From: Gemmatimonadota bacterium
Lineage (GTDB): Bacteria; Gemmatimonadota; Gemmatimonadetes; Gemmatimonadales; GWC2-71-9
Assembly (NCBI GenBank): GCA_016209985.1
Contig: JACQVB010000226.1
Span: 1 to 61,215 of the forward strand
Reading direction: 5' to 3'
Length of the DNA: 61,215 nt
Shown here: positions 2,612-61,215 of the stretch, piece by piece
How the letters are laid out: each line of letters starts with the position of its first letter
How positions within the stretch are numbered: the first letter of the stretch is position 1
Translations under genes and position numbers: made by a program
Notes under the pieces: model-generated
What the model was told of the DNA's origin: nothing
What the model saw: the letters and a program-made list of their open reading frames with translations, nothing else
The model's database searches: none

Positions 2612-2651
2612 TGTGAGCGGTGAGCAGCGAGCGGAACGGTCACCGCTCACA
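2612..2651. repeat. 7-mer (GTGAGCG-type) tandem array with short inverted arm
   Basis: tgtgagcggtgagcagcgagcgg...tcaccgctcaca; contains the stop codon of the upstream GT. Confidence 0.6.
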
Positions 2652-3945
2652 GCTTCGCAAATACGTCCGCGACCTTCCTGGCAAAGGCTCTCGCCGAGAA
2701 ATGGTCTTCCGCCCGCACCCGTCCCAAATGCCCAATCTGCCAAAGTTCTTCTCGCGCAAGGGACAATGCACGCCTGAGGGACGAAGACAACGACGCGGCA
2801 TCTCTTGGTGGAACCAGCCACCCGCCAACGGAAACCCCTTTTGCATTCTGCGCACTGCGCACTTGTCCCTCTGCGTTCTGCGTACTGCGCACTCCCTCCA
2901 GGATCTCCAACGGTCCGCCTTCGGCAGCCGCCAGCACCGGCACGCCGCAGGCCATCGACTCGAGAATGACCCGCCCGAATGGCTCGGGCCGAAGCGAGTA
3001 ATGCACGGTCACGTCCAGCTCGGGATAGACCAGCTCGATCCTCGGTTGAAAGCCGAGGATGTGGAATTGTGGGGCAGCGCGGCCGAGGTTCGAGAGCCGG
3101 ATACTTTCGTGCAGTGCCTCGCCGAACTCGCGTTCCGCGATCGTGTCGTAGATGCTTCCGCCCACGAAGACCAGATGTGCGTCGGGAATGCTTTCCGCGA
3201 TGGATCGGAACGCTTCGATGACGACCTCGTGTCCCTTCCACCGGGCGAAGACCGCGGGCATGCCGACCAGACGGGCCGGAGCGGGAATCCCTAGCGCTTG
3301 GTGAATCCATCCGGTGCGCTCGCGAGGCTTGAAACGATCCAGATCGACGCCGTTGGGGACGACCACCAGACGGTCGGACGGTCGGGCGGTCGGACGGTTG
3401 GTGCCGGTTTCCGCGGCTATCTGACCGTCTGACCGTCTGACCGTCTGACCGTCCCATGCCTCCGCCACCGCCTTCGAATTCGCGATGAGTGCATCCGGCA
3501 CCCGCCTCGCGAGCATCTTCCACGCGCGCCCGGTCGTCTGGGGCGGGAATTCGTGGAGATGCCACACGACCTTTTTGCCGAACGGCAAGGTCGTGGCGAG
3601 ATGGCTTTTGAATCCCACCGAGTAGAGGACGTTGGCTTCCTGGCAGAACTTGTGGCTCCGGAGCGAGCGGGCCCACAGCGGCAAAGCCATCGCGGCGGGA
3701 AGAGCGGACCAGAGCCTGCCACGCTGCTGCGACCCGCGCAACATGATTTTCGGAGCGGGCACGACTCTGGCGGGGACGCCCGATTGGTTGAGGAGCTCGA
3801 TCAGCGGTCCATCTCGCGGCACCAGGACCCGCAGCGCGATGTCGTGCTCGAAGGCCCGTTCGGCAAAATCCAACAACACGCGTTCGGTGCCGCCGAGCTG
3901 GGCCGAGGCGGCGAGGGCGGTGACCCGAAGTGGAGTGGCGGTCAT
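2647..3945 (-). CDS. Glycosyltransferase family 4
   Basis: GGTERV, VVPNGVD, RWKGH and EPFGRVILESMACGVPV motifs; start reassigned to ATG 3945; carries two repeat-derived in-frame insertions. Confidence 0.9.
   Translation of the reverse strand: MTATPLRVTALAASAQLGGTERVLLDFAERAFEHDIALRVLVPRDGPLIELLNQSGVPARVVPAPKIMLRGSQQRGRLWSALPAAMALPLWARSLRSHKFCQEANVLYSVGFKSHLATTLPFGKKVVWHLHEFPPQTTGRAWKMLARRVPDALIANSKAVAEAWDGQTVRRSDGQIAAETGTNRPTARPSDRLVVVPNGVDLDRFKPRERTGWIHQALGIPAPARLVGMPAVFARWKGHEVVIEAFRSIAESIPDAHLVFVGGSIYDTIAEREFGEALHESIRLSNLGRAAPQFHILGFQPRIELVYPELDVTVHYSLRPEPFGRVILESMACGVPVLAAAEGGPLEILEGVRSTQNAEGQVRSAQNAKGVSVGGWLVPPRDAASLSSSLRRALSLAREELWQIGHLGRVRAEDHFSARAFARKVADVFAKL
2840..2893. repeat. In-frame 7-mer (CTGCGCA-type) array inside GT4
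   Basis: Two blocks, ttgcattctgcgcactgcgcact and ctgcgttctgcgtactgcgcact, encoding VRSTQNAEGQVRSAQNAKG. Confidence 0.75.
3368..3454. repeat. In-frame 8-mer (GACGGTCR) inverted-repeat hairpin inside GT4
   Basis: (gacggtcg)x4-like arm, 19-nt loop, (ctgaccgt)x4 arm; encodes DGQTVRRSDGQIAAETGTNRPTARPSDR. Confidence 0.9.
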
Positions 3946-3958
3946 GGGGCGAGGCGGC

Positions 3959-4087
3959 AAGAGGTAAAGAGTAAGAACGAGTGAAGAGGGAAGAGTAAAG
4001 CAACCCCGCGTTGATGCGCGGAATCGGCAACCAAGCAGCCGTGGAAGAGTTTTGCTCTTCCCTCTTCCCTCTTCACTCTTCACTCTC
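3959..4087. repeat. Intergenic 7-mer (GTGAAGA/GGGAAGA) inverted-repeat pair
   Basis: gagtgaagagggaagagtaaa ... tttgctcttccctcttccctcttcactcttcactctc. Confidence 0.85.
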
Positions 4088-5242
4088 TCAATGGAGGAGT
4101 GTCCGGTACAGTTCCGCCGTCCTCCGTGCCGTTTCCACCCACCGGAATTTCTTGGCGCGCTCCAGCCCCCGCCTGACCAGTTGTTCGCGCCAGGTCGCAT
4201 TCATGGTGAGGCGGCGCAGGGCCACGACGTACGGCTCCACCTCCCGCCCGCCAACCACGATGGCCGCGTCTCCCGCCACCTCCGCCAGTCCGCCCGCGCC
4301 CGAGGTCACCACCGGTAGCCCCGACGCCATGGCCTCGAGCACCGGGAAACCGAATCCTTCGTAGTGGGAGGGGAAGAGCAGCACGTCGGCCGCGCGATAC
4401 GCGGCCCGGAGTTCGGTTTCCGCCGCTTCGCCGACGGTGCGTACCCGGGCGGCAATACCGCGGGCGGCAAGATCGACCCGCTGATCGGGCGTGAGCGTGC
4501 CACCGACCTGGAGCAGCCAGGCGTCGGTGCCGCTGGCGCGGAGGCCGTGCACCGCCGCGATGACGGCGGGGAGATTCTTTCGCGGTCCCACGCTGCCGAC
4601 GTGCAGCACCACAAACGCGCTCTGGGGGATGTCGAGGCGTTTCCGGGTTGCCTCCGGTGTCTCCCCGGTCCGGGTGAGAAATCCATCGTCCACGCCGAAG
4701 GGAATCACGTGGATCCGATCTTCGTGGCCCAGCCAGTCGGCCAGCTCGGAGCGCATCCACTCAGTGGCGACGATCCATGCGTCCGCCCGCCGGAGCGCAT
4801 TCAGCACCCATTCCAGCAGGCGGTTCCGGATCCGGTCTCGGAAGCCGGCGGCGCCACGCTCGACCGTCAAGACGGGCAGCAGGTCGTGGACGGTGACGAT
4901 GGTCGGCGCTTGCCGGCCGGCGCGCAGCACGTGCGCATAGGAATGATCCAGCACGTGGATCAGGTCCGCCCGCTGGGAACGGACTCGGCGGGGATAGCGG
5001 TAATAGCGCGCCAGGTAGCGGCGGGCTTCCTGAAATCCGGGCGCGGGAAGCAGCGGGAGCGGAATCGGGCCCGAGCGATTGCGGCGGCCGCCGTCGGTGG
5101 TGAGTCCCGCGATTTGGCCGGCGAGCCGCACCTCGAGGTCGGTGGCATAGCGGCGGAGGTGCTCGGTCAGCCGGGACGCATAGCGGTCCATCGACGGCCA
5201 GCGCTCGAGGGGGAGATCCGGCACCAGAAGAACTCTATACAC
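4088..5242 (-). CDS. Glycosyltransferase family 4
   Basis: TVHDL, PRKNL and EGFGFPVLEAMASGLPVV motifs; start reassigned to GTG 5242. Confidence 0.9.
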   Translation of the reverse strand: MYRVLLVPDLPLERWPSMDRYASRLTEHLRRYATDLEVRLAGQIAGLTTDGGRRNRSGPIPLPLLPAPGFQEARRYLARYYRYPRRVRSQRADLIHVLDHSYAHVLRAGRQAPTIVTVHDLLPVLTVERGAAGFRDRIRNRLLEWVLNALRRADAWIVATEWMRSELADWLGHEDRIHVIPFGVDDGFLTRTGETPEATRKRLDIPQSAFVVLHVGSVGPRKNLPAVIAAVHGLRASGTDAWLLQVGGTLTPDQRVDLAARGIAARVRTVGEAAETELRAAYRAADVLLFPSHYEGFGFPVLEAMASGLPVVTSGAGGLAEVAGDAAIVVGGREVEPYVVALRRLTMNATWREQLVRRGLERAKKFRWVETARRTAELYRTLLH

Positions 5243-5255
5243 TTGCACACACAAC

Positions 5256-5292
5256 GGCGTGAAGAGTGTAGAGTGAAGAGGGAAAAGTACTA
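5256..5292. repeat. 37-bp inverted repeat, left arm flanking the four-helix-bundle gene
   Basis: ggcgtgaagagtgtagagtgaagagggaaaagtacta; 32/37 match to the reverse complement of 5739-5775. Confidence 0.9.
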
Positions 5293-5649
5293 CTGTTTGC
5301 GCGTAAGCCTCTTGAGCAACCCGATGAGGAGCTTGATGAGCAGATCGGTGTCTTCTTGAAGGCGCTTCTGTTCTGTAGGATCCAGTAGCTCCATCTCGGC
5401 AGCCAGCTCGATATGCCAGGCGAGTTCGCACGCTGAGCCGAACGCAATCCGCAGGCAGCGAACCAATTGCCTGGGTGTACCGAGTGCATAGCCTTCGACA
5501 ATATTAGCTGGAATGGACGCGGCCGCGCGGCGGATTTGATCCGCGAGGCCAAAGTGCCGTCGTAACGGTTGTTGCATGGTGGCACGATAGGCTGCTCGTG
5601 CGACATCCTTAGCGTGGGTCCACGCTTTGAGAGTTCCGAGCGATTGCAT
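5290..5649 (-). CDS. Four helix bundle protein (23S rRNA intervening-sequence protein family)
   Basis: 119 aa with family motifs LKAW, FGLADQIRRAAASIPANIVEG and LRIAFGSACEL; lower GC than neighbouring genes. Confidence 0.9.
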   Translation of the reverse strand: MQSLGTLKAWTHAKDVARAAYRATMQQPLRRHFGLADQIRRAAASIPANIVEGYALGTPRQLVRCLRIAFGSACELAWHIELAAEMELLDPTEQKRLQEDTDLLIKLLIGLLKRLTRKQ

Positions 5650-5738
5650 GCACCCAATTCCGCAGCCAGCAGCGAAAGTGCATCATCATTTCCTTGCAGC
5701 TCGTGGCAAATTGTCTCACTCGGCTCTGGCCTTTCGGT

Positions 5739-5775
5739 TAGTACTCTTCCCTCTAAACTCTTCACCCTTCACGCC
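5739..5775. repeat. 37-bp inverted repeat, right arm flanking the four-helix-bundle gene
   Basis: tagtactcttccctctaaactcttcacccttcacgcc; supplies the stop codon of the upstream membrane protein. Confidence 0.9.
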
Positions 5776-7132
5776 TTTGTTCTTCTAGCATGGCAAGCTT
5801 TAAGAGCGTTCCGAGCAGATACCACCAGATAATCCCATGCGGTGCGGACGCGAATGGGGACCCGATCAATACACCCAGGCCGGTGGTAATGAGCAGCGGC
5901 GCGATGCCGAGCGCGAGGTCTTCCGCTTCCGTACCCGCCAGCACTCTCGCCGCGCGAGCGGCATAGGGCAGCAGGCCGGCGATGATGAGGAACAGGAGGA
6001 GGATGCCGATGATGCCCATTTCCACCGCGGCGCGCCCGATATCGCCGTCGCTGCCCATGAAGAATCCGGTTGGCTGAGAGGTGAAGATGCTGAAGGGGAC
6101 GCCGACGCCGCTGCGTCCCAGGCCCAGGCCGAGCGGATGCGCGAGCAGCGCGCGAATCGCGATGGTGACCGGTGCCGCGACGTAGCGCCAGAACAGGCCT
6201 TCTTCCAGCAGAATGGTCCGGAACCGCTCGAGCGCGCCTCCCGAGGTAAAGAGCGACGCCACATGGAAGGCCCCGATGAGAATGGGGAGCAGGAGAATCT
6301 GTCCGGCGCTCAACCGCCGGAACCAGGCGACCAGGACCAGGCCCGCCATCAGGATGATCAGGGCCGCCCGGGTGCCCGAGACCGTCATCCCGAAGAACAG
6401 GAGTGGGACCAGCAACGCGGCCAGCAGACGACGCTTCTTGGGGAGGAGTCGCCCCACCGCGATACCCATCGCGAGCAGGGCGCCGAAGACCATCATCATG
6501 GCGAACGGGGCAGGGAAGGTGAAGGTCGAGAACGCGCGGAACCCGGTGCGTCCGGTGCCCTCGATGAAGTAGAACGTGCTGCTCCCGTGCCGGAGCTGAG
6601 CCAATCCGCCGATGTTGAGCGCCGCTTGCGGGCCGGCCTGGTACTGGAGAATCCCGTAAATCGCGGTGCTGAAGCACAGGACGAGAATGGTGCCGATGTA
6701 GGCGCGCGCCTGGCCGGCGTTGCGAATGACGGAGAGTGCCATCAGGCAGCCCATGGGAAATTCCGCCCAGGCTCTCAACCCGGCGAGCTGCACCACCAGC
6801 GGGGCCGTGGGATAGAGCAGGTACGCCGCGGGCACGATCCCGACGGCGAGCAGGATGTAGGGGACGCGCCCCGGGCCCCGGATCGGCTCGTGCCGAACGG
6901 CGAGGGTGCCGAACCAGGCGGCAGCGGCGGCCATGAAACACGCATCGGCGAGCGCATAGGGAATGGCCCCGCCGATCCGGTCCTTGAGGTAGCCCTGGAA
7001 CGTCGCGGCCACGATGCTGCCCAGCACACCGAGGTGCACCAGTTGGTCCCGCCGGAAGATGTCGGTCCACTGATTTCGCAGCGGCGTGTCCTGGTCGCCG
7101 TATGTCGGGAGGGCATTGGGGAACGAGGTCAT
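5762..7132 (-). CDS. Wzy polymerase / O-antigen ligase-like membrane protein
   Basis: About 11-12 hydrophobic segments; RAFSTF, SGTRAAL and HPLGLGLG motifs; located in a glycan cluster. Confidence 0.75.
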   Translation of the reverse strand: MTSFPNALPTYGDQDTPLRNQWTDIFRRDQLVHLGVLGSIVAATFQGYLKDRIGGAIPYALADACFMAAAAAWFGTLAVRHEPIRGPGRVPYILLAVGIVPAAYLLYPTAPLVVQLAGLRAWAEFPMGCLMALSVIRNAGQARAYIGTILVLCFSTAIYGILQYQAGPQAALNIGGLAQLRHGSSTFYFIEGTGRTGFRAFSTFTFPAPFAMMMVFGALLAMGIAVGRLLPKKRRLLAALLVPLLFFGMTVSGTRAALIILMAGLVLVAWFRRLSAGQILLLPILIGAFHVASLFTSGGALERFRTILLEEGLFWRYVAAPVTIAIRALLAHPLGLGLGRSGVGVPFSIFTSQPTGFFMGSDGDIGRAAVEMGIIGILLLFLIIAGLLPYAARAARVLAGTEAEDLALGIAPLLITTGLGVLIGSPFASAPHGIIWWYLLGTLLKLAMLEEQRREG

Positions 7133-10238: not shown

Positions 10239-10351
10239 AGGCGTGAAGAGGGAAGAGTGAAGAGGGAAGCGCACTGCTTTCGCAGCCGTCTTCACGGTGA
10301 TGGTGGCGTGGTCTCACTCTTCCCTCTTGACTCTACACTCTCCACTCTTTT
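10239..10351. repeat. 7-mer (GTGAAGA-type) inverted pair; right arm translated as a methyltransferase C-terminus
   Basis: aggcgtgaagagggaagagtgaagagggaagcg ... cactcttccctcttgactctacactctccactctttt. Confidence 0.85.
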
Positions 10352-24552: not shown

Positions 24553-24625
24553 CGGCGGACATAGCGGCACGGCGGCATGGCGGCAGTAACCTATGCCGCT
24601 ATCCCGCGATGCCGCTATGCCGCTG
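24553..24625. repeat. 8-mer (GCGGCATA-type) inverted pair in the tRNA spacer
   Basis: catagcggcacggcggcatggcggca ... tgccgctatcccgcgatgccgctatgccgctg. Confidence 0.85.
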
Positions 24626-49201: not shown

Positions 49202-49214
49202 GCGGGCGCCGGGC

Positions 49215-49297
49215 AACGGCACAACGGCATAACGGCACCACGGCATTCGTACGTGTCGGGAATTCGTGCCGTCATGCCGTTATCCCGTCGTGCCGTC
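49215..49297. repeat. 8-mer (ACGGCAYR) inverted pair between recJ and rsmD
   Basis: 31-nt arms at 49215-49245 and 49267-49297, 26/31 complementary. Confidence 0.9.
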
Positions 49298-49319
49298 GCG
49301 GCCCGCCTGGGCCGCGCTG

Positions 49320-51299: not shown

Positions 51300-51635
51300 A
51301 TGAGCTTTTCGGTAAAGAAAGACCCGAAGGGTGTCGTGGTGGTCACGGTGGACGGCCAGCTCATCGTCGGGAACCGGCAGGAGCTCAAACAGAAGATCAC
51401 CGAGGCACTCGAGGCAGGAGAACGCAAGTTCCTCATCGACTTTACCAACACCGGCTACATCGATTCCTCCGGGCTCGGCGTGCTGGTATCGCTTTCGCGC
51501 AAGATTCGCGAGGCGGACGGCGAGCTTCGGCTGGCGGGACTCAATGAAGATCTCCGCACGTTGTTCGAGCTGACCAAACTCGACTCCCTCTTCAGCATTG
51601 CCGACTCCCCCGCTGCCGCCCTCGCCGGATTCTGA
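51300..51635 (+). CDS. STAS anti-sigma-factor antagonist (RsbV/SpoIIAA-like)
   Basis: YIDSSGLGVLV and FELTKLD. Confidence 0.93.
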   Translation: MSFSVKKDPKGVVVVTVDGQLIVGNRQELKQKITEALEAGERKFLIDFTNTGYIDSSGLGVLVSLSRKIREADGELRLAGLNEDLRTLFELTKLDSLFSIADSPAAALAGF

Positions 51636-51639
51636 AGCG

Positions 51640-51813
51640 GGCTTCGCCCTGAAGGGCTTCAGCCCTGAAGGGTTCGCCTCCCTCAGACTCTGTGTGCGCC
51701 GCTCACCCAGCGGTGCCTGGCGCGCCTCGTCCCCCTCTCCCGAAGGCGCCGCCCTGAGCGGAGTGGGAGCCTGCCCCGCGCGAAGCGAGGGGGAGAAAGG
51801 GGACCGGGGAGAG
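51640..51813. repeat. Composite REP-like region
   Basis: gccctgaaggg twice; gtccccctctccc...ggggaccggggagagg with nested gcctgccccgcgcgaagcgagg. Confidence 0.7.
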
Positions 51814-53789: not shown

Positions 53790-54638
53790 GTGGGGCGGCG
53801 CCTCGGCCAGCACTTCCTCACCGATCCGGCAATTCTGGACCGGATCGTCGATGCGATCGATCCCGGTCCGGACGACGTGGTGATCGAAATCGGGCCGGGG
53901 AAGGGAACGCTGACTCGCCGGCTTGCGCCGCGGGTGGGGCACGTCGTCGCGATAGAAAAGGACGCGGCGCTCGCCCAGCAACTGCGTGAAGAGTGTAGAG
54001 TGAAGAGGGAAGAGTACGGCCACGCCCAGGTGACGATCGTCGAAGGTGACGCGCTCACGCTCGACTGGACCAGGCTCACGGCGGCGCCCACTCTTCCCTC
54101 TTCACTCTACACTCTTCACGCCTTCAAGGTCATCGGCAACATCCCCTACTACATCACCTCACCCCTCATCGAGAAGGCGCTCACGACGCCACTTCCTTCG
54201 GTGATCGTGTTTCTGGTGCAGCGGGAGTTCGCTGGCCGGCTCACGGCGGCCCCCGGTGGAAAGGAATACGGCGCGCTCTCCGCAGGGGTCCAGGCGATTG
54301 CACGAGTCGAGAAACTGTTCGTGGTGCGTGCCGGTGCGTTCCATCCGCCACCCAAAGTGGATTCGGCGGTGGTCCGCCTTACCCCACGGAAGGACCCCAC
54401 CGTGAGGGGTGACGAGCACCCCCGGTTCCGGGCATTCCTGGCGGCGGTTTTTTCCCAAAGGAGAAAACAACTGGGTCGTGCGCTACGCGGGGTGACCGGC
54501 ATGAGTAAGGAGGACGTCCTGGCGGTGCTGGACGGAATCGGCATCGATCCCGCATCGAGGGCGGAGGTCCTCACCGTCGACCAGCTCACCAGTCTGTTTC
54601 GGCGAACCCAATTGTTCCCGGACTCGGTGACTGAGTAA
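53790..54638 (+). CDS. rsmA: 16S rRNA dimethyladenosine transferase RsmA/KsgA
   Basis: LGQHFL, EIGPGKG, GDAL, GNIPYYITSP and FHPPPKVDSA. Confidence 0.96.
   Translation: MGRRLGQHFLTDPAILDRIVDAIDPGPDDVVIEIGPGKGTLTRRLAPRVGHVVAIEKDAALAQQLREECRVKREEYGHAQVTIVEGDALTLDWTRLTAAPTLPSSLYTLHAFKVIGNIPYYITSPLIEKALTTPLPSVIVFLVQREFAGRLTAAPGGKEYGALSAGVQAIARVEKLFVVRAGAFHPPPKVDSAVVRLTPRKDPTVRGDEHPRFRAFLAAVFSQRRKQLGRALRGVTGMSKEDVLAVLDGIGIDPASRAEVLTVDQLTSLFRRTQLFPDSVTE
53984..54121. repeat. Perfect 32-bp inverted repeat inside rsmA
   Basis: gcgtgaagagtgtagagtgaagagggaagagt (53984-54015) is the exact reverse complement of 54090-54121; 74-nt loop. Confidence 0.95.
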
Positions 54639-55533: not shown

Positions 55534-55567
55534 GTCATGCCGTCAAGCCGTCATGCCGTCATGCCGT
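55534..55567. repeat. 8-mer (GTCATGCC)x4 array
   Basis: gtcatgcc gtcaagcc gtcatgcc gtcatgcc gt. Confidence 0.85.
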
Positions 55568-56728: not shown

Positions 56729-57250
56729 ATTCAGAATGAAAAACAAGAACAACGAGTTCGGGTCAACCGGCAAATACGCATCAGTCCGGTCCGACTCATC
56801 GGGGCCGACGGATCACAGCTCGGCATCGTGCAGCTGGAAGAAGCGTTTCGGATAGCCGCGGAAAGCGGTCATGATCTGGTCGAAGTCGCCCCGCTGGCTC
56901 GTCCGCCGGTGGTCAAGGTGATGGACTACGGGAAGTACCGTTTCGAGCAAGCCAAGGCGGCCCGCGCGGCAAAGAAAAAACAGCATGTGATACAGATGAA
57001 GGAAGTGAAGTACCGGCCGGGCATCGACGACCACGACTTCGATTTCAAAACCCGGCACGCGCGCAACTTCCTCCAAGAAGGCAACAAGGTGAAGCTCACC
57101 ATGATGTTCCGCGGCCGGCAGGTCGCCCATCCCGAGCTCGGGCGTGAGGTCCTCCAGCGAGTGGTCGATGCGCTCCAGGATGTCGGGAAGGTCGAAATGG
57201 AGCCGAAGCTCGAGGGGCGGAACATGACCATGGTGGTGGGACCCAAGTGA
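56729..57250 (+). CDS. infC: Translation initiation factor IF-3 (ATT start)
   Basis: RVNRQIR, DLVEVAP, DYGKYRFE and MFRGRQ; in-frame ATT 11 nt after GGAGG. Confidence 0.95.
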   Translation: MQNEKQEQRVRVNRQIRISPVRLIGADGSQLGIVQLEEAFRIAAESGHDLVEVAPLARPPVVKVMDYGKYRFEQAKAARAAKKKQHVIQMKEVKYRPGIDDHDFDFKTRHARNFLQEGNKVKLTMMFRGRQVAHPELGREVLQRVVDALQDVGKVEMEPKLEGRNMTMVVGPK

Positions 57251-57351
57251 CGGCATGACGGGATAGACGGCATGACGGCATGCCGTTATGCCGTGGAGGG
57301 TGGTGGAGGGGAGAGGGGATGCCGTTGGGGCTGGGCGGTTGGGCGGCGGGT
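57248..57351. repeat. Mixed 8-mer (ACGGCATG) and G-rich arrays between infC and rpmI
   Basis: tgacggcatgacgggatagacggcatgacggcatgccgttatgccgt, then tggaggg and gggcggtt units. Confidence 0.8.
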
Positions 57352-58977: not shown

Positions 58978-59122
58978 CCTCACCCCTGTCCCCTCTCCCT
59001 GTGGGAGAGGGGGACGGAAGAGCGCCCATGGAAGTGCTGAGGGCTTTCCCCGGGGCTTTCAAGCGTTCACGTCACGCTGGCGTTTCCTTCTCCCGTAAGG
59101 GAGAGGGGACAGGGGTGAGGGG
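58978..59122. repeat. Two oppositely oriented REP-like palindromes between pheS and pheT
   Basis: cctcacccctgtcccctctccctgtgggagagggggac ... ctcccgtaagggagaggggacaggggtgagggg. Confidence 0.9.
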
Positions 59123-61215
59123 ATGAACATCTCCCTCAACTGGCTCTCCGCCATGCTCGGCCGGTCCCTCGACCCGGCCGATACCGCGTACCGTCTCACG
59201 ATGCTCGGCGCCGCGGTGGACGCGGTCGAGCCGCTCCACCAGGACCTGGGCGATGTCATCGTGGCCCAGGTGGAGAGCGTCGGGAAGCACCCCAACGCGG
59301 ATCGCCTGTCGCTCTGCCTGGTGAACGACGGCAAGAATGTGGTGGAGGTCGTCTGCGGCGCACCCAACGTGACGGCGGGCAAGAAATATCCGTACGCGCC
59401 GGTCGGCTCCGTTCTTCCCGGCGGTCTCAAGCTCGAGGCGCGCAAGATCCGCGGCGTCTCCTCCAATGGAATGCTCTGCTCCGCCAAGGAGCTGGGCCTC
59501 GGCGCCGACCATTCCGGCATCCTCGAATTGAACACCGACGCCGCGCCGGGAACCCCGTTTGTGAAAGCGGTGCCGGTAGCAGATCATCGGTTGGTCCTGG
59601 ACGTGACGGCCAACCGGCCGGATCTGCTTTGCCACAAGGGAGTCGCCCGGGAATTGGCCGTGCTGGACGGCGGAATGGTCCGCCTGGTCCCGATTCCCGG
59701 CGACGGGCACGCCGCCGAACCCGCTCGGGTGGGCGCTCGAGGCACGGTCGATGGAGTCGAGATCCTCATCGAGGACGTGGACGGATGCCCCCGCTATGCC
59801 GCGGCCGTGATCCGCGGCGTGCACGTGGGTCCCTCACCGGAGTGGCTGCAGGCCCCGCTCCGAAGCGTGGGTGCCGGGCCCATCAACAATGTGGTGGACG
59901 CCACCAACTTCATCCTCCACGAGCTCAATCAGCCGCTTCACGCGTTCGATCTTCGAAAACTGGCGGGGCAAAAGATCATCGTGCGCCGCGCCCGCGCCGG
60001 GGAGAACATCACGACACTCGATGGGACGGCGCGAACGCTGACGACTGAGATGACCGCTATCTGCGATGCCGACCGTCCCGTAGCGGTGGCCGGCGTCATG
60101 GGTGGCGCCGATTCCGAGGTCTCTCCCGATACGGTTGACATCGTGCTGGAGTGCGCCCACTTCAATCCCAAGCGCATCCGGGCCACCCGGACCGCGCTCA
60201 AGCTGAGTACGGAGGCGTCCTACCGGTTCGAGCGGGGGATCGACCTCCAGGCGCTGCCGTTCGCGCTGCGCCGCGCCGTGAGCCTCATCGTCGCTACCGC
60301 TGGTGGACGCGCCACCGGGGCCACCGATCTCTATCCCTCTCCCACCCAGGAGCCGCTGATTTTCCTCCGTCCCGAGCGCGTTCAGCATCTGCTCGGAACA
60401 GCGGTCCCGCGAGCGGAGATCGAGCGCTATCTCACCAGCGTCGGCTTTACGGTGGCGCCTCGGGAAGAGCGGCTGGCCGTCCAGGTGCCTGGCTGGCGGC
60501 CCGATGTGACCCGCGAAGTGGATCTCATCGAGGAAGTCGCCCGGCTCAAGGGGTACGGTGCTTTCCCGGTCGAGCTGGGCGCCTTCCGGCCGAGCACGGT
60601 TCCCGACGACCCGGTAGAAGACCTGAAGGCGCGGCTTCGTCGGGTGTTTTGCGCGCTGGGACTGCACGAAGCCCGATCCTACCCTCTGGGCCGAGCGGGT
60701 GACGAGAGCGCGGTCGCACTCGCCAATCCGCTCTCGGCGGATGACGCCTATCTCCGCTCGGATCTGATCGCCGGATTGACCCGGGCTGCGGAACACAACT
60801 GGTCGGTCCGCGAGCGGAATATTCGACTGTTCGAGGTTGGTGCGGTCTTCCGCCGGCTGGGCCGAGCCCCGGGCGCCACGCCGAAAGACGGAAGACCGGA
60901 CGAGCAACTGCATCTCGCGGCCGTGATCAGCGGAGCGCGAGTGCCACCGCATTGGTCCACGGCCGGAAAGTCCCCCGATGCCGATCTGTGGGACCTCAAG
61001 CATCTGCTTGAAGAAGCAGTGCGGATCGGACGGCCGGGCTCCATGGTTTCGCCCGAGGGTGTGGGCTGGGTGATCCGTGACGCCTCGGGGGAAACTCGCG
61101 GGTGGGCGCGGCAACTCGAAGCAGACCGGCCGGCATGGGCTGCTCCCTTATTCGGGCTGGAAGTCGAGCTTGCGGGTACCGTCTCCCTCTCCCGTAAGGA
61201 GCCTGCCCTGAGCGC
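59123..61215 (+). CDS. pheT: Phenylalanine-tRNA ligase beta subunit (3' end beyond window)
   Basis: MNISLNWL, HPNADRL, VCGAPNV, GMLCS, TANRPD, SYRFERG and DLIEEVAR by manual translation. Confidence 0.96.
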   Translation, partial: MNISLNWLSAMLGRSLDPADTAYRLTMLGAAVDAVEPLHQDLGDVIVAQVESVGKHPNADRLSLCLVNDGKNVVEVVCGAPNVTAGKKYPYAPVGSVLPGGLKLEARKIRGVSSNGMLCSAKELGLGADHSGILELNTDAAPGTPFVKAVPVADHRLVLDVTANRPDLLCHKGVARELAVLDGGMVRLVPIPGDGHAAEPARVGARGTVDGVEILIEDVDGCPRYAAAVIRGVHVGPSPEWLQAPLRSVGAGPINNVVDATNFILHELNQPLHAFDLRKLAGQKIIVRRARAGENITTLDGTARTLTTEMTAICDADRPVAVAGVMGGADSEVSPDTVDIVLECAHFNPKRIRATRTALKLSTEASYRFERGIDLQALPFALRRAVSLIVATAGGRATGATDLYPSPTQEPLIFLRPERVQHLLGTAVPRAEIERYLTSVGFTVAPREERLAVQVPGWRPDVTREVDLIEEVARLKGYGAFPVELGAFRPSTVPDDPVEDLKARLRRVFCALGLHEARSYPLGRAGDESAVALANPLSADDAYLRSDLIAGLTRAAEHNWSVRERNIRLFEVGAVFRRLGRAPGATPKDGRPDEQLHLAAVISGARVPPHWSTAGKSPDADLWDLKHLLEEAVRIGRPGSMVSPEGVGWVIRDASGETRGWARQLEADRPAWAAPLFGLEVELAGTVSLSRKEPALS
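61181..61215. repeat. REP-like element starting within pheT (cut by window edge)
   Basis: gtctccctctcccgtaagga-gcctgccctgagcg, matching the 20741-20810 element. Confidence 0.75.

Follow-up and report, generated by a model that had tools for sequence, protein, structure and literature searches.

A PF05635 gene between inverted heptamer arrays in a glycan operon of a Gemmatimonadales bacterium, its gene-less hairpin relatives and its kinship with 23S rRNA intervening sequences

Introduction

Small four-helix-bundle proteins of the PF05635/TIGR02436 family are encoded in the intervening sequences (IVSs) of 23S rRNA genes, and a homologous protein, Avd, belongs to diversity-generating retroelements (DGRs). 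This work deals with a gene of the family located in a glycan operon of a Gemmatimonadota bacterium (Gemmatimonadales, GWC2-71-9; GenBank assembly GCA_016209985.1), where inverted arrays of GTGAAGA-like heptamers bracket it and form with it a cassette of about 530 bp (5251-5780). Coordinates without a contig name refer to the window, which is the whole stretch of DNA analysed: contig JACQVB010000226.1, positions 1 to 61,215 of the forward strand, 61,215 nucleotides (nt). To our knowledge, no function has been established for the IVS proteins since their discovery in rRNA genes. The cassette is a variant of the IVS kind; the protein-plus-repeat element seems not to have been described previously, and the wider system to which it belongs may be new in kind.

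The closest described systems are of three types. According to Warrier et al. (PMC4990558), the Coxiella IVS shows two or three tandem GACAGAT heptamers at its 5' end, in a number that differs between strains; RNase III cuts at the first heptamer, and the encoded protein, S23p, is probably not made in vivo. A preprint on Avd (bioRxiv 10.1101/2023.10.23.563531) describes a positively charged pentamer with all five protomers on one RNA stem-loop, in which flipped-out bases occupy crevices between protomers, and PF05635 is given as the commonest Pfam family beside DGR reverse transcriptases (RTs) in PMC10053308. In the third type, doublets of repetitive extragenic palindromic sequences (REPINs) and their associated tyrosine transposases (RAYTs), inverted copies of a repeat stand on either side of a single-copy gene, and further copies are scattered, mostly outside genes, as doublets able to form hairpins (PMC3337134, PMC3116915). 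In addition, a figure legend of PMC10910872 names a '23S rRNA IVP' among the proteins associated with clustered regularly interspaced short palindromic repeat (CRISPR) arrays, a listing that could reflect heptamer arrays. Beyond the note on the Coxiella heptamers, no general account of periodic arrays around PF05635 genes was found in the literature searched, the supplements of PMC10910872 and of the DGR surveys excepted, and no explanation was found there for the commonness of stand-alone Avd relatives outside DGRs.

The cassette shares with the 23S IVSs of Leptospira, Coxiella and Azospirillum the protein family, an open reading frame (ORF) between stem-forming arms and arms made of tandem heptamers; it differs from them in lying between protein genes of an operon, in a gene that looks intact and in dozens of gene-less hairpins of the same unit. 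The Avd of the Bordetella phage DGR (bAvd, PDB 4DWL) is a homologous small four-helix bundle, but the locus shows no RT, template or variable repeat, although pairs of template and variable repeats were not searched for. The likeness to REPIN-RAYT systems consists of a gene between inverted repeat copies, a repeat also dispersed as hairpins and a lineage-specific repeat family. In contrast to them, PF05635 is not a Y1 (IS200/IS605-like) transposase, the repeat consists of tandem units instead of being a fixed palindrome, the hairpin spacers are unconserved and some copies enclose native coding sequence. From miniature inverted-repeat transposable elements (MITEs) and other transposons with terminal inverted repeats the cassette differs in having no target-site duplication and in that the loops of its gene-less relatives are unrelated to cassette interiors.

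Anatomy of the cassette

The inverted repeat comprises 5251-5292 and 5739-5780, with 42 nt per arm, 36 of them complementary (86%), and a spacing of 446 nt. A sequence-only reading of the window had delimited the arms as 5256-5292 and 5739-5775 with 32 matches in 37, a count borne out by direct reading. Both arms contain four GTGAAGA-like heptamers followed by GTACTA: the upstream (5') arm in the sense of the gene (5739-5780, minus strand) reads GTGAAGG, GTGAAGA, GTTTAGA, GGGAAGA and GTACTA, and the downstream (3') arm, found by repeat search (5251-5292, minus strand), is complementary to it. Tandem Repeats Finder (TRF) assigns to the left arm a period of 7 and 4.3 copies (5259-5288). Between the arms there is only an intact PF05635/TIGR02436 gene for a protein of 119 amino acids, identified by profile match (5290-5649, minus strand), and a leader of 89 nt from the arm to the ATG, delimited by reading the sequence (5650-5738, minus strand), which contains one weak sigma-70-like match, by consensus alone (TTGCCA-16-GATGAT, 5709..5682). 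The GC content is 0.525-0.60 over 5200-5799 and 0.64-0.735 in the flanks; the earlier description of arms enclosing just a lower-GC gene and its leader agrees with both the ORF content and the GC profile.

Both arms reach into coding sequence. The 5' arm also carries the final four codons and the stop (5762-5764) of the upstream operon gene (5762-7132, minus strand; ORF and Pfam search), which encodes a polytopic membrane protein of 456 amino acids with no Pfam match. The 3' arm overlaps the TAG stop of the PF05635 gene (5290-5292) and ends 6 nt short of the GTG start of a family 4 glycosyltransferase (GT4) gene (4088-5245, minus strand); this start, GTG 5245, was taken from the alignment with the orthologue of a related genome, G010 (61% identity from residue 1). 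All the neighbours of the cassette are on the minus strand: GT4 glycosyltransferases, an FkbM methyltransferase and the membrane protein.

Matches to (GTGAAGA)3 with up to three mismatches number 15 in the window and 0 in 100 shuffles. The inverted-repeat score of the locus is 54, whereas among 1000 random 330-bp slots of the genome 1.2% reach 30 and the maximum is 40. A chance origin of the inverted repeat is excluded because of these shuffle and random-slot controls. In the 561-nt sense RNA the arms are predicted to be closed in both the minimum free energy and the centroid folds (z = -4.6). The cassette is not inside a 23S rRNA gene (helix 9, 25 or 45), since its flanks are the membrane-protein and GT4 genes, and an Rfam scan of 3800-6200 gave no rRNA, with sub-threshold microRNA and snoRNA noise alone.

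The encoded protein matches PF05635 with an E value of 3.7e-25 and 88.6 bits against a cut-off of 33.8, its residues 7-109 aligning to positions 3-105 of the 106 in the profile, and TIGR02436 with 5e-26 and 91 bits (cut-off 24). It retains the family motif RRAAxSxxxNIxEG, and eight positions are invariant in five paralogues: Q38, R41, A42, A43, S45, N49, E52 and G53. A profile of the paralogues retrieved from the PDB the entries 2GSC (E 3e-31; 3.2e-31 unrounded) and 2RLD (1.7e-10), each with five chains; 4DWL (Avd) was not among the matches of this sequence search. The nearest PF05635 homologues are in records titled Gemmatimonadales; the best matches show 55% identity among genome contigs and 63% among metagenome contigs. 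No near-identical copy in another context, as a sign of recent mobility, was found in the genome and metagenome contigs searched.

Insertion between two glycan genes

An orthologue of the upstream membrane-protein gene was found in three of 41 related genomes. In one of them, G010, the orthologues of the membrane-protein gene (55% identity) and of the GT4 gene (61%) adjoin, with a stop/start overlap of 4 nt at GTGA and no hairpin at the junction, while 516 nt separate the two coding regions in the window. Since the G010 genes overlap without a hairpin, the whole cassette is to be read as an insertion, and the comparison of the two gene orders shows it at the junction of two formerly overlapping glycan genes. 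The C-terminal tail of the membrane protein is altered because its gene now ends inside the arm: it is ...EEQRREG* in the window and ...EYDRQVAAQPEPAPA* in G010. An empty site in related glycan clusters, which the sequence-only reading had proposed to look for, is present at this G010 junction. The same reading had placed the gene in the loop of a hairpin; the arms do bracket the gene, but the pre-existing hairpin implied by this wording does not fit an empty site that has none.

No direct repeat of at least 4 nt was found beside the arms as a target-site duplication (5241-5250 is ACTTGCACAC and 5781-5790 is TCTTCTAGCA). Four DNA read sets (X1-X4) showed no cassette-less allele; the reads that join arm to arm trace only to further members of the hairpin family, whose sides measure 22-32 nt around an interior of 18-21 nt. 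A search of RNA runs for 4600-6600 found none that contains this DNA.

Flanking arrays of paralogues and relatives

The host assembly (G000; 4.64 Mb, 289 contigs, 95% complete) contains six PF05635 matches. Inverted tandem arrays flank five or six of them, with a different unit at each: 7-mers at C180, C7 and C99, a 9-mer at C154, a 10-mer at C134 and a weak 19-mer at C33. Four of the six show flanking inverted-repeat scores of 54-68, above the maximum of the random slots. The 10-mer arms at C134:18980-19922 (L163) are 836 nt apart and also enclose a convergent gene for a Phage_holin_4_2 membrane protein. The sixth paralogue, C99:277-579 (L006), has strong arrays (score 68), covers profile positions 37-104 only and shows no in-frame start codon; from its sequence it looks truncated or frameshifted. 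Inspection of the paralogue flanks, also proposed by the sequence-only reading, gave inverted periodic arrays at five of the six.

The same arrangement was found outside the host. In genomes of the same order, with one locus each, flanking inverted repeats are present in 27 of 29 loci, mostly with 7-9-nt units; the 27 include one from an unpublished genome (G016), and the two exceptions are L019 and a locus at a contig end. A wider set of 111 loci was drawn from 13 phylum-level groups. The score is 30 or higher in 82 of them, a threshold calibrated on the GC-rich host genome and on matched slots only, and 70 of the 111 are periodic, the period being 7 in 54 loci, 8 in 11 and 9 in five. Two of 110 control slots within these loci reach the threshold. 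An independent set of metagenome contigs contained 80 loci, from which eight were removed for short flanks; 53 of the remaining 72 score at least 30 and 52 are periodic. The inverted-array layout is shown to be general across phyla and is present in a true rRNA IVS.

Protein clade and repeat unit

A FastTree phylogeny was built with the 70 proteins that have periodic arms, and their units were assigned to three classes: TCAG-type, GACAAG-type and other. The unit class changes nine times on the tree, whereas 300 shuffles required 26.5 changes on average and never fewer than 20. The period (7 versus 8-9) also changes nine times; here the shuffles averaged 14.6, with none below 11. The TCAG class contains Acidobacteriota, Verrucomicrobiota, Gemmatimonadota and others, and the GACAAG class contains the candidate phyla radiation and Gammaproteobacteria. 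The nearest relative of the window protein (63% identity) has (GGGAAGA)4 arms, and relatives with 52-55% identity have the G-rich units GGGATTG or GGGGAAN. On this sequence-based tree, protein clade and unit class are shown to co-vary.

The arms have medians of 4.3, 3.9, 3.9 and 3.9 units for periods 7, 8, 9 and 10, and their length rises from 30 to 39 nt. Units are counted, not bases: there are about four per arm regardless of the period, a figure partly set by the TRF score threshold.

Gene-less hairpins

The census of gene-less hairpins in the host genome (TRF and pairing of inverted arrays with a loop of up to 130 nt) gave 349, of which 248 are built of 7-nt, 63 of 8-nt, 21 of 9-nt and 13 of 10-nt units. 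Three of the cassette family are in the window. The one at 3981-4083 belongs to the GTGAAGA/GGGAAGA family and has a 54-nt loop; that at 10243-10349, of the GTGAAGA family, is between GT4 and methyltransferase genes, and its 3' arm shares bases with the end of the methyltransferase ORF (both by motif search and TRF). The third, at 53984-54121 (motif search, Pfam), is inside the ksgA/rsmA ORF (53790-54638, PF00398), and its arm is identical to the left arm of the cassette at 33 of 34 positions, including the order of unit variants. These are the three empty hairpins that the sequence-only reading had placed at 3959, 10239 and 53984, and they are real. Since gene-less hairpins share the arms of the cassette, the cassette is the gene-bearing member of a repeat family, as had been suggested, and this holds for five of the six paralogues, whose units match gene-less families of 44, 36, 25, 13 and 11 copies.

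The polarity of the hairpins is fixed: the 5' arm carries one version of the unit in 11 of 12 families, with counts that include 56/56, 39/39, 40/40, 27/27, 26/26, 22/22, 16/16, 13/13, 13/13 and 11/11. The exception (40/44) is a family mixed with a different element. The loops are unconserved, with 18 non-self hit rows (about nine pairs) among 152 loops of at least 30 nt, and show no meaningful similarity to cassette interiors; an origin of the gene-less hairpins as deletion derivatives of cassettes was rejected on the ground that the loops are unrelated to those interiors. Loops are only slightly more structured than control segments from nearby (mean z -0.51 versus -0.05; 15% versus 5% below -2; Mann-Whitney p = 0.09), and the notion that arms wrap pre-existing hairpins was dropped as a general rule for this reason. 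Some loops are intrinsic terminators, such as C289:4379, and the ksgA loop contains a native palindrome. By crude gene calls, 31 hairpins are between convergent genes, nine between divergent and 63 between co-directional genes, and about 23 of the 349 are inside long open frames. Ordinary genes are also found between arms that lie far apart: LMWPc, DUF559, cytochrome c and PALP.

Hairpin density is 7.5 per 100 kb in the host and 0-1.2 in five genomes free of PF05635, the latter values being doubtful (samples of 67-171 kb). The sampled stretches of G026 contain 6.0 per 100 kb, with the TAGGGGN unit of the cassette of that genome. The PF05635 gene looks necessary but not sufficient for hairpins.

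Other inverted arrays were seen in the window. Octamer arrays at 24553-24624, 49214-49298, 55534-55567 and 57248-57282 belong to the GCGGCACG, CAACGGCA and GTCATGCC families, for which no PF05635 gene was found in the assembly. A further pair, at 3369-3453, shows GACGGTCG (3.8 copies) and TCTGACCG (4.2 copies) around a 21-nt loop (-77.5 kcal/mol) and is inside the open frame of a glycosyltransferase ORF (2647-4200, minus strand), within its Pfam Glyco_transf_4 alignment.

In-frame arms in ksgA

The arms of the ksgA hairpin (53984-54121) are translated in frame as REECRVKREEY and TLPSSLYTLHA, inserts of about 11 codons each. The loop between them is the conserved V.GDAL..DW segment, native coding sequence present in all aligned orthologues. 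Forty orthologues were found and 14 were aligned: six carry arms, at two positions common to them all (the first arm begins at nt 191-197), and the other eight are without arms. The unit families at this site differ between genera: GTGAAGA/GGGAAGA, ATGCGGA, GGAACGC and GGGATTC. Since the loop is native, arms can bracket native DNA, which is unexplained by transposition of a whole element. A Rickettsia palindromic element is one element inserted at one point. Such elements and the ksgA hairpin have in common palindromic repeats tolerated in frame in protein genes; here, in contrast, two separate arms of about 11 codons are placed around a native protein stretch.

Kinship with 23S rRNA intervening sequences and cyanobacterial heptamers

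A tblastn search detected in Azospirillum lipoferum 4B replicon AZO_p2 (NC_016586.1, 13698-15394, L156) an unannotated PF05635 ORF between inverted CAGAGGA/CGGATGA arrays. Over its whole length the stretch matches the Rfam 23S rRNA model (positions 572-1926), and by these matches it is a classical IVS, unannotated in the record. The heptamer arms of Azospirillum and Coxiella make the rRNA IVS and the operon cassette one kind of element. The sequence-only reading had seen in the cassette an IVS-like element within an mRNA; its anatomy is that of a genuine 23S IVS, but the excision by RNase III that this implies is open to doubt, because searches of the host and of 20 relatives detected no gene for this enzyme. 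PF14622, PF00636 and TIGR02191 gave no match in the 95%-complete host genome, and PF14622 gave none in any of the 21 genomes of the order (the host and the 20 relatives; 18 at least 90% complete). The Gemmatimonadales lineage may be without canonical RNase III, which is a possible reason why long stems inside genes are tolerated.

Mazel et al. are said to have described in 1990 the cyanobacterial short tandemly repeated repetitive (STRR) sequences, tandem heptamers dispersed in the genomes of Nostoc and Calothrix. Heptamers are common to STRRs and to the arrays studied here, but three described STRR units differ from the present ones, and the likeness is a lead only. The PF05635 genes of Nostoc punctiforme and Calothrix plasmids have GGGTGTA/GGGTGTG arms, and the copy in the gamma plasmid of Nostoc PCC 7120 has arrays on both sides that are not mutually complementary. 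The GGGTGTA-armed cassettes of N. punctiforme pNPUN01 (L153) and Calothrix brevissima plasmid1 (L154) are directly 3' of tyrosine recombinase/integrase genes.

Proposed mechanism and alternative explanations

The reading favoured here, for which we see even chances, is that the protein and its cognate periodic array are a two-component system, similar to RAYT and REPIN with no transposase. Each PF05635 lineage would travel with its own periodic unit, and the same unit would form dispersed gene-less hairpins. The protein, by homology a pentameric nucleic-acid-binding barrel, would recognise tandem units, about one per protomer, both in the arms of its own cassette and in the dispersed hairpins of that family; it would be a binder, not a transposase. 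A ring of equivalent sites fits a ligand of four to five equal units, and the protein-plus-cognate-array system is therefore favoured. In the operon transcript, the arms can close into a stem of about 38 bp, at whose base the upstream stop and the downstream start codons would meet. Arms would be installed in a way unlike the cut-and-paste of whole hairpins. Binding, RNA processing and arm installation are the steps that we infer.

A broader version is put forward tentatively, as possible rather than probable: Avd-like pentamers may supply the protein in a class of two-component repeats that is widespread and unrecognised. In this class, each lineage would specify a cognate array of about four units, installed as fixed-polarity inverted pairs around host DNA, even in frame in essential genes and, by different families, repeatedly at one site (ksgA), without a transposase or RT. 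The 23S IVSs and possibly the cyanobacterial heptamers would be special cases, and lineages without RNase III would tolerate the largest expansions. The cross-phylum rule, inverted arrays of about four units with unit and period following the protein tree, would provide a concrete candidate ligand for the whole family and brings the rRNA IVSs together with the cassettes of ordinary operons. The gene-less hairpins, with their native loops, fixed polarity and copies in frame, would need a mode of spread unlike known transposition.

Several results weigh against the two-component reading. Six large hairpin families (56, 39, 27, 22, 16 and 13 copies) show no cognate gene in the 95%-complete assembly, and the PF05635-rich genomes G031 (eight genes) and G022 (six genes) contain 0 and 0.5 gene-less hairpins per 100 kb, respectively, so that the PF05635 gene is not sufficient for spread. 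On the inferred sense strand of 87 hairpins (crude strand calls), G.U and A.C mismatches number 68 and 92, with no excess of G.U, and selection for RNA pairing is therefore not shown; nor is selection for pairing evident from the arms themselves, since in five of seven families two arms resemble each other no more within a hairpin than between hairpins. The C33 paralogue has weak 19-mer arrays alone (score 27), and 29 of the 111 cross-phylum loci are below 30. The dependence of the unit count on the TRF threshold belongs here too. Co-variation of protein and unit is also expected from plain co-inheritance of the cassette without recognition: kin share unit labels, and the tree result is therefore one of co-inheritance, compatible with recognition.

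The main rival is a classical IVS in an mRNA. A double-strand-specific RNase would cut the stem, the operon mRNA would be split, the cassette RNA released, and the protein would be dispensable cargo. The architecture, which is the same as in true 23S IVSs, the predicted stem (z = -4.6) and the Coxiella case, where excision starts with the first heptamer and S23p is probably not produced in vivo (PMC4990558), are consistent with it. This rival is weakened here because RNase III was not found, either in the host or in any of the 21 genomes; moreover, the PF05635 gene is intact and conserved, the gene-less hairpins show no sense-strand G.U bias, and a 33-bp ksgA stem would harm the host if cut, and we hold this explanation to be unlikely. 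Rather unlikely is also a role of the hairpins in host regulation, as terminators, mRNA stabilisers or attenuators, in which the PF05635 proteins would be TRAP-like trans regulators, with autoregulatory arms and nothing selfish about them. The preference for convergent over divergent genes (31 versus 9, with 63 co-directional, by crude calls), the loops that are intrinsic terminators (C289:4379), the constancy of about four units per arm whatever the period and the grip of Avd on a stem-loop with all five protomers (10.1101/2023.10.23.563531) would fit such a role. However, sister genomes have none or very few hairpins, and therefore there is no conserved regulatory layer; about 23 of the 349 copies are in frame inside genes, the ksgA site is occupied by different unit families in different genera, and the cassette is an insertion that broke a translational overlap.

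Movement of REPIN- or MITE-like hairpins by an unrelated transposase, with PF05635 genes that merely attract them or share permissive intergenic sites, is judged very improbable. Two Y1_Tnp matches in the host, one with an AGCCATC hairpin 65 nt from its end, and the ordinary genes (LMWPc, DUF559, cytochrome c, PALP) that can sit between distant arms speak for it. Against it, the Y1_Tnp and RT genes are not bracketed (scores 21-24), and the sole RT of the genome, one RVT_1 match on contig C157, corresponds to the C-terminal half of a group II intron RT model; a RAYT or an RT was rejected as partner on these grounds. The loops are also unconserved and unlike cassette interiors, that of ksgA being native coding sequence, and the bracketing spans phyla and follows the PF05635 tree. 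Chance or local replication slippage, with arrays unlinked to the gene, has a practically negligible probability. Short tandem repeats do expand in this way, and the repeat number of Coxiella varies between strains (PMC4990558), but an identical 33-nt succession of unit variants is found at separate loci, the version of the 5' arm is fixed in families (e.g., 56/56), and few control slots reach the score (1.2% of the random and 2/110 of the matched ones).

Other repeats in the window

Arrays of the kind described here break assemblies and lengthen ORF calls, which is relevant to annotation. Two further repeats of the window are of other types. A 16-nt tandem repeat at 51632-51678 (CTGAAGGGGCTTCAGCC, 2.5-2.7 copies) has a palindromic unit and is unrelated to the heptamer families. 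A separate repeat at 58978-59123 has 22-nt C-rich/G-rich inverted ends, of opposite polarity, and loops of about 100 nt; it is also present at C147:4645-4788, C269:11262-11398 and C70:13668-13797, with partly homologous loops (87% over 78 nt), and resembles an ordinary small dispersed element or an RNA gene.

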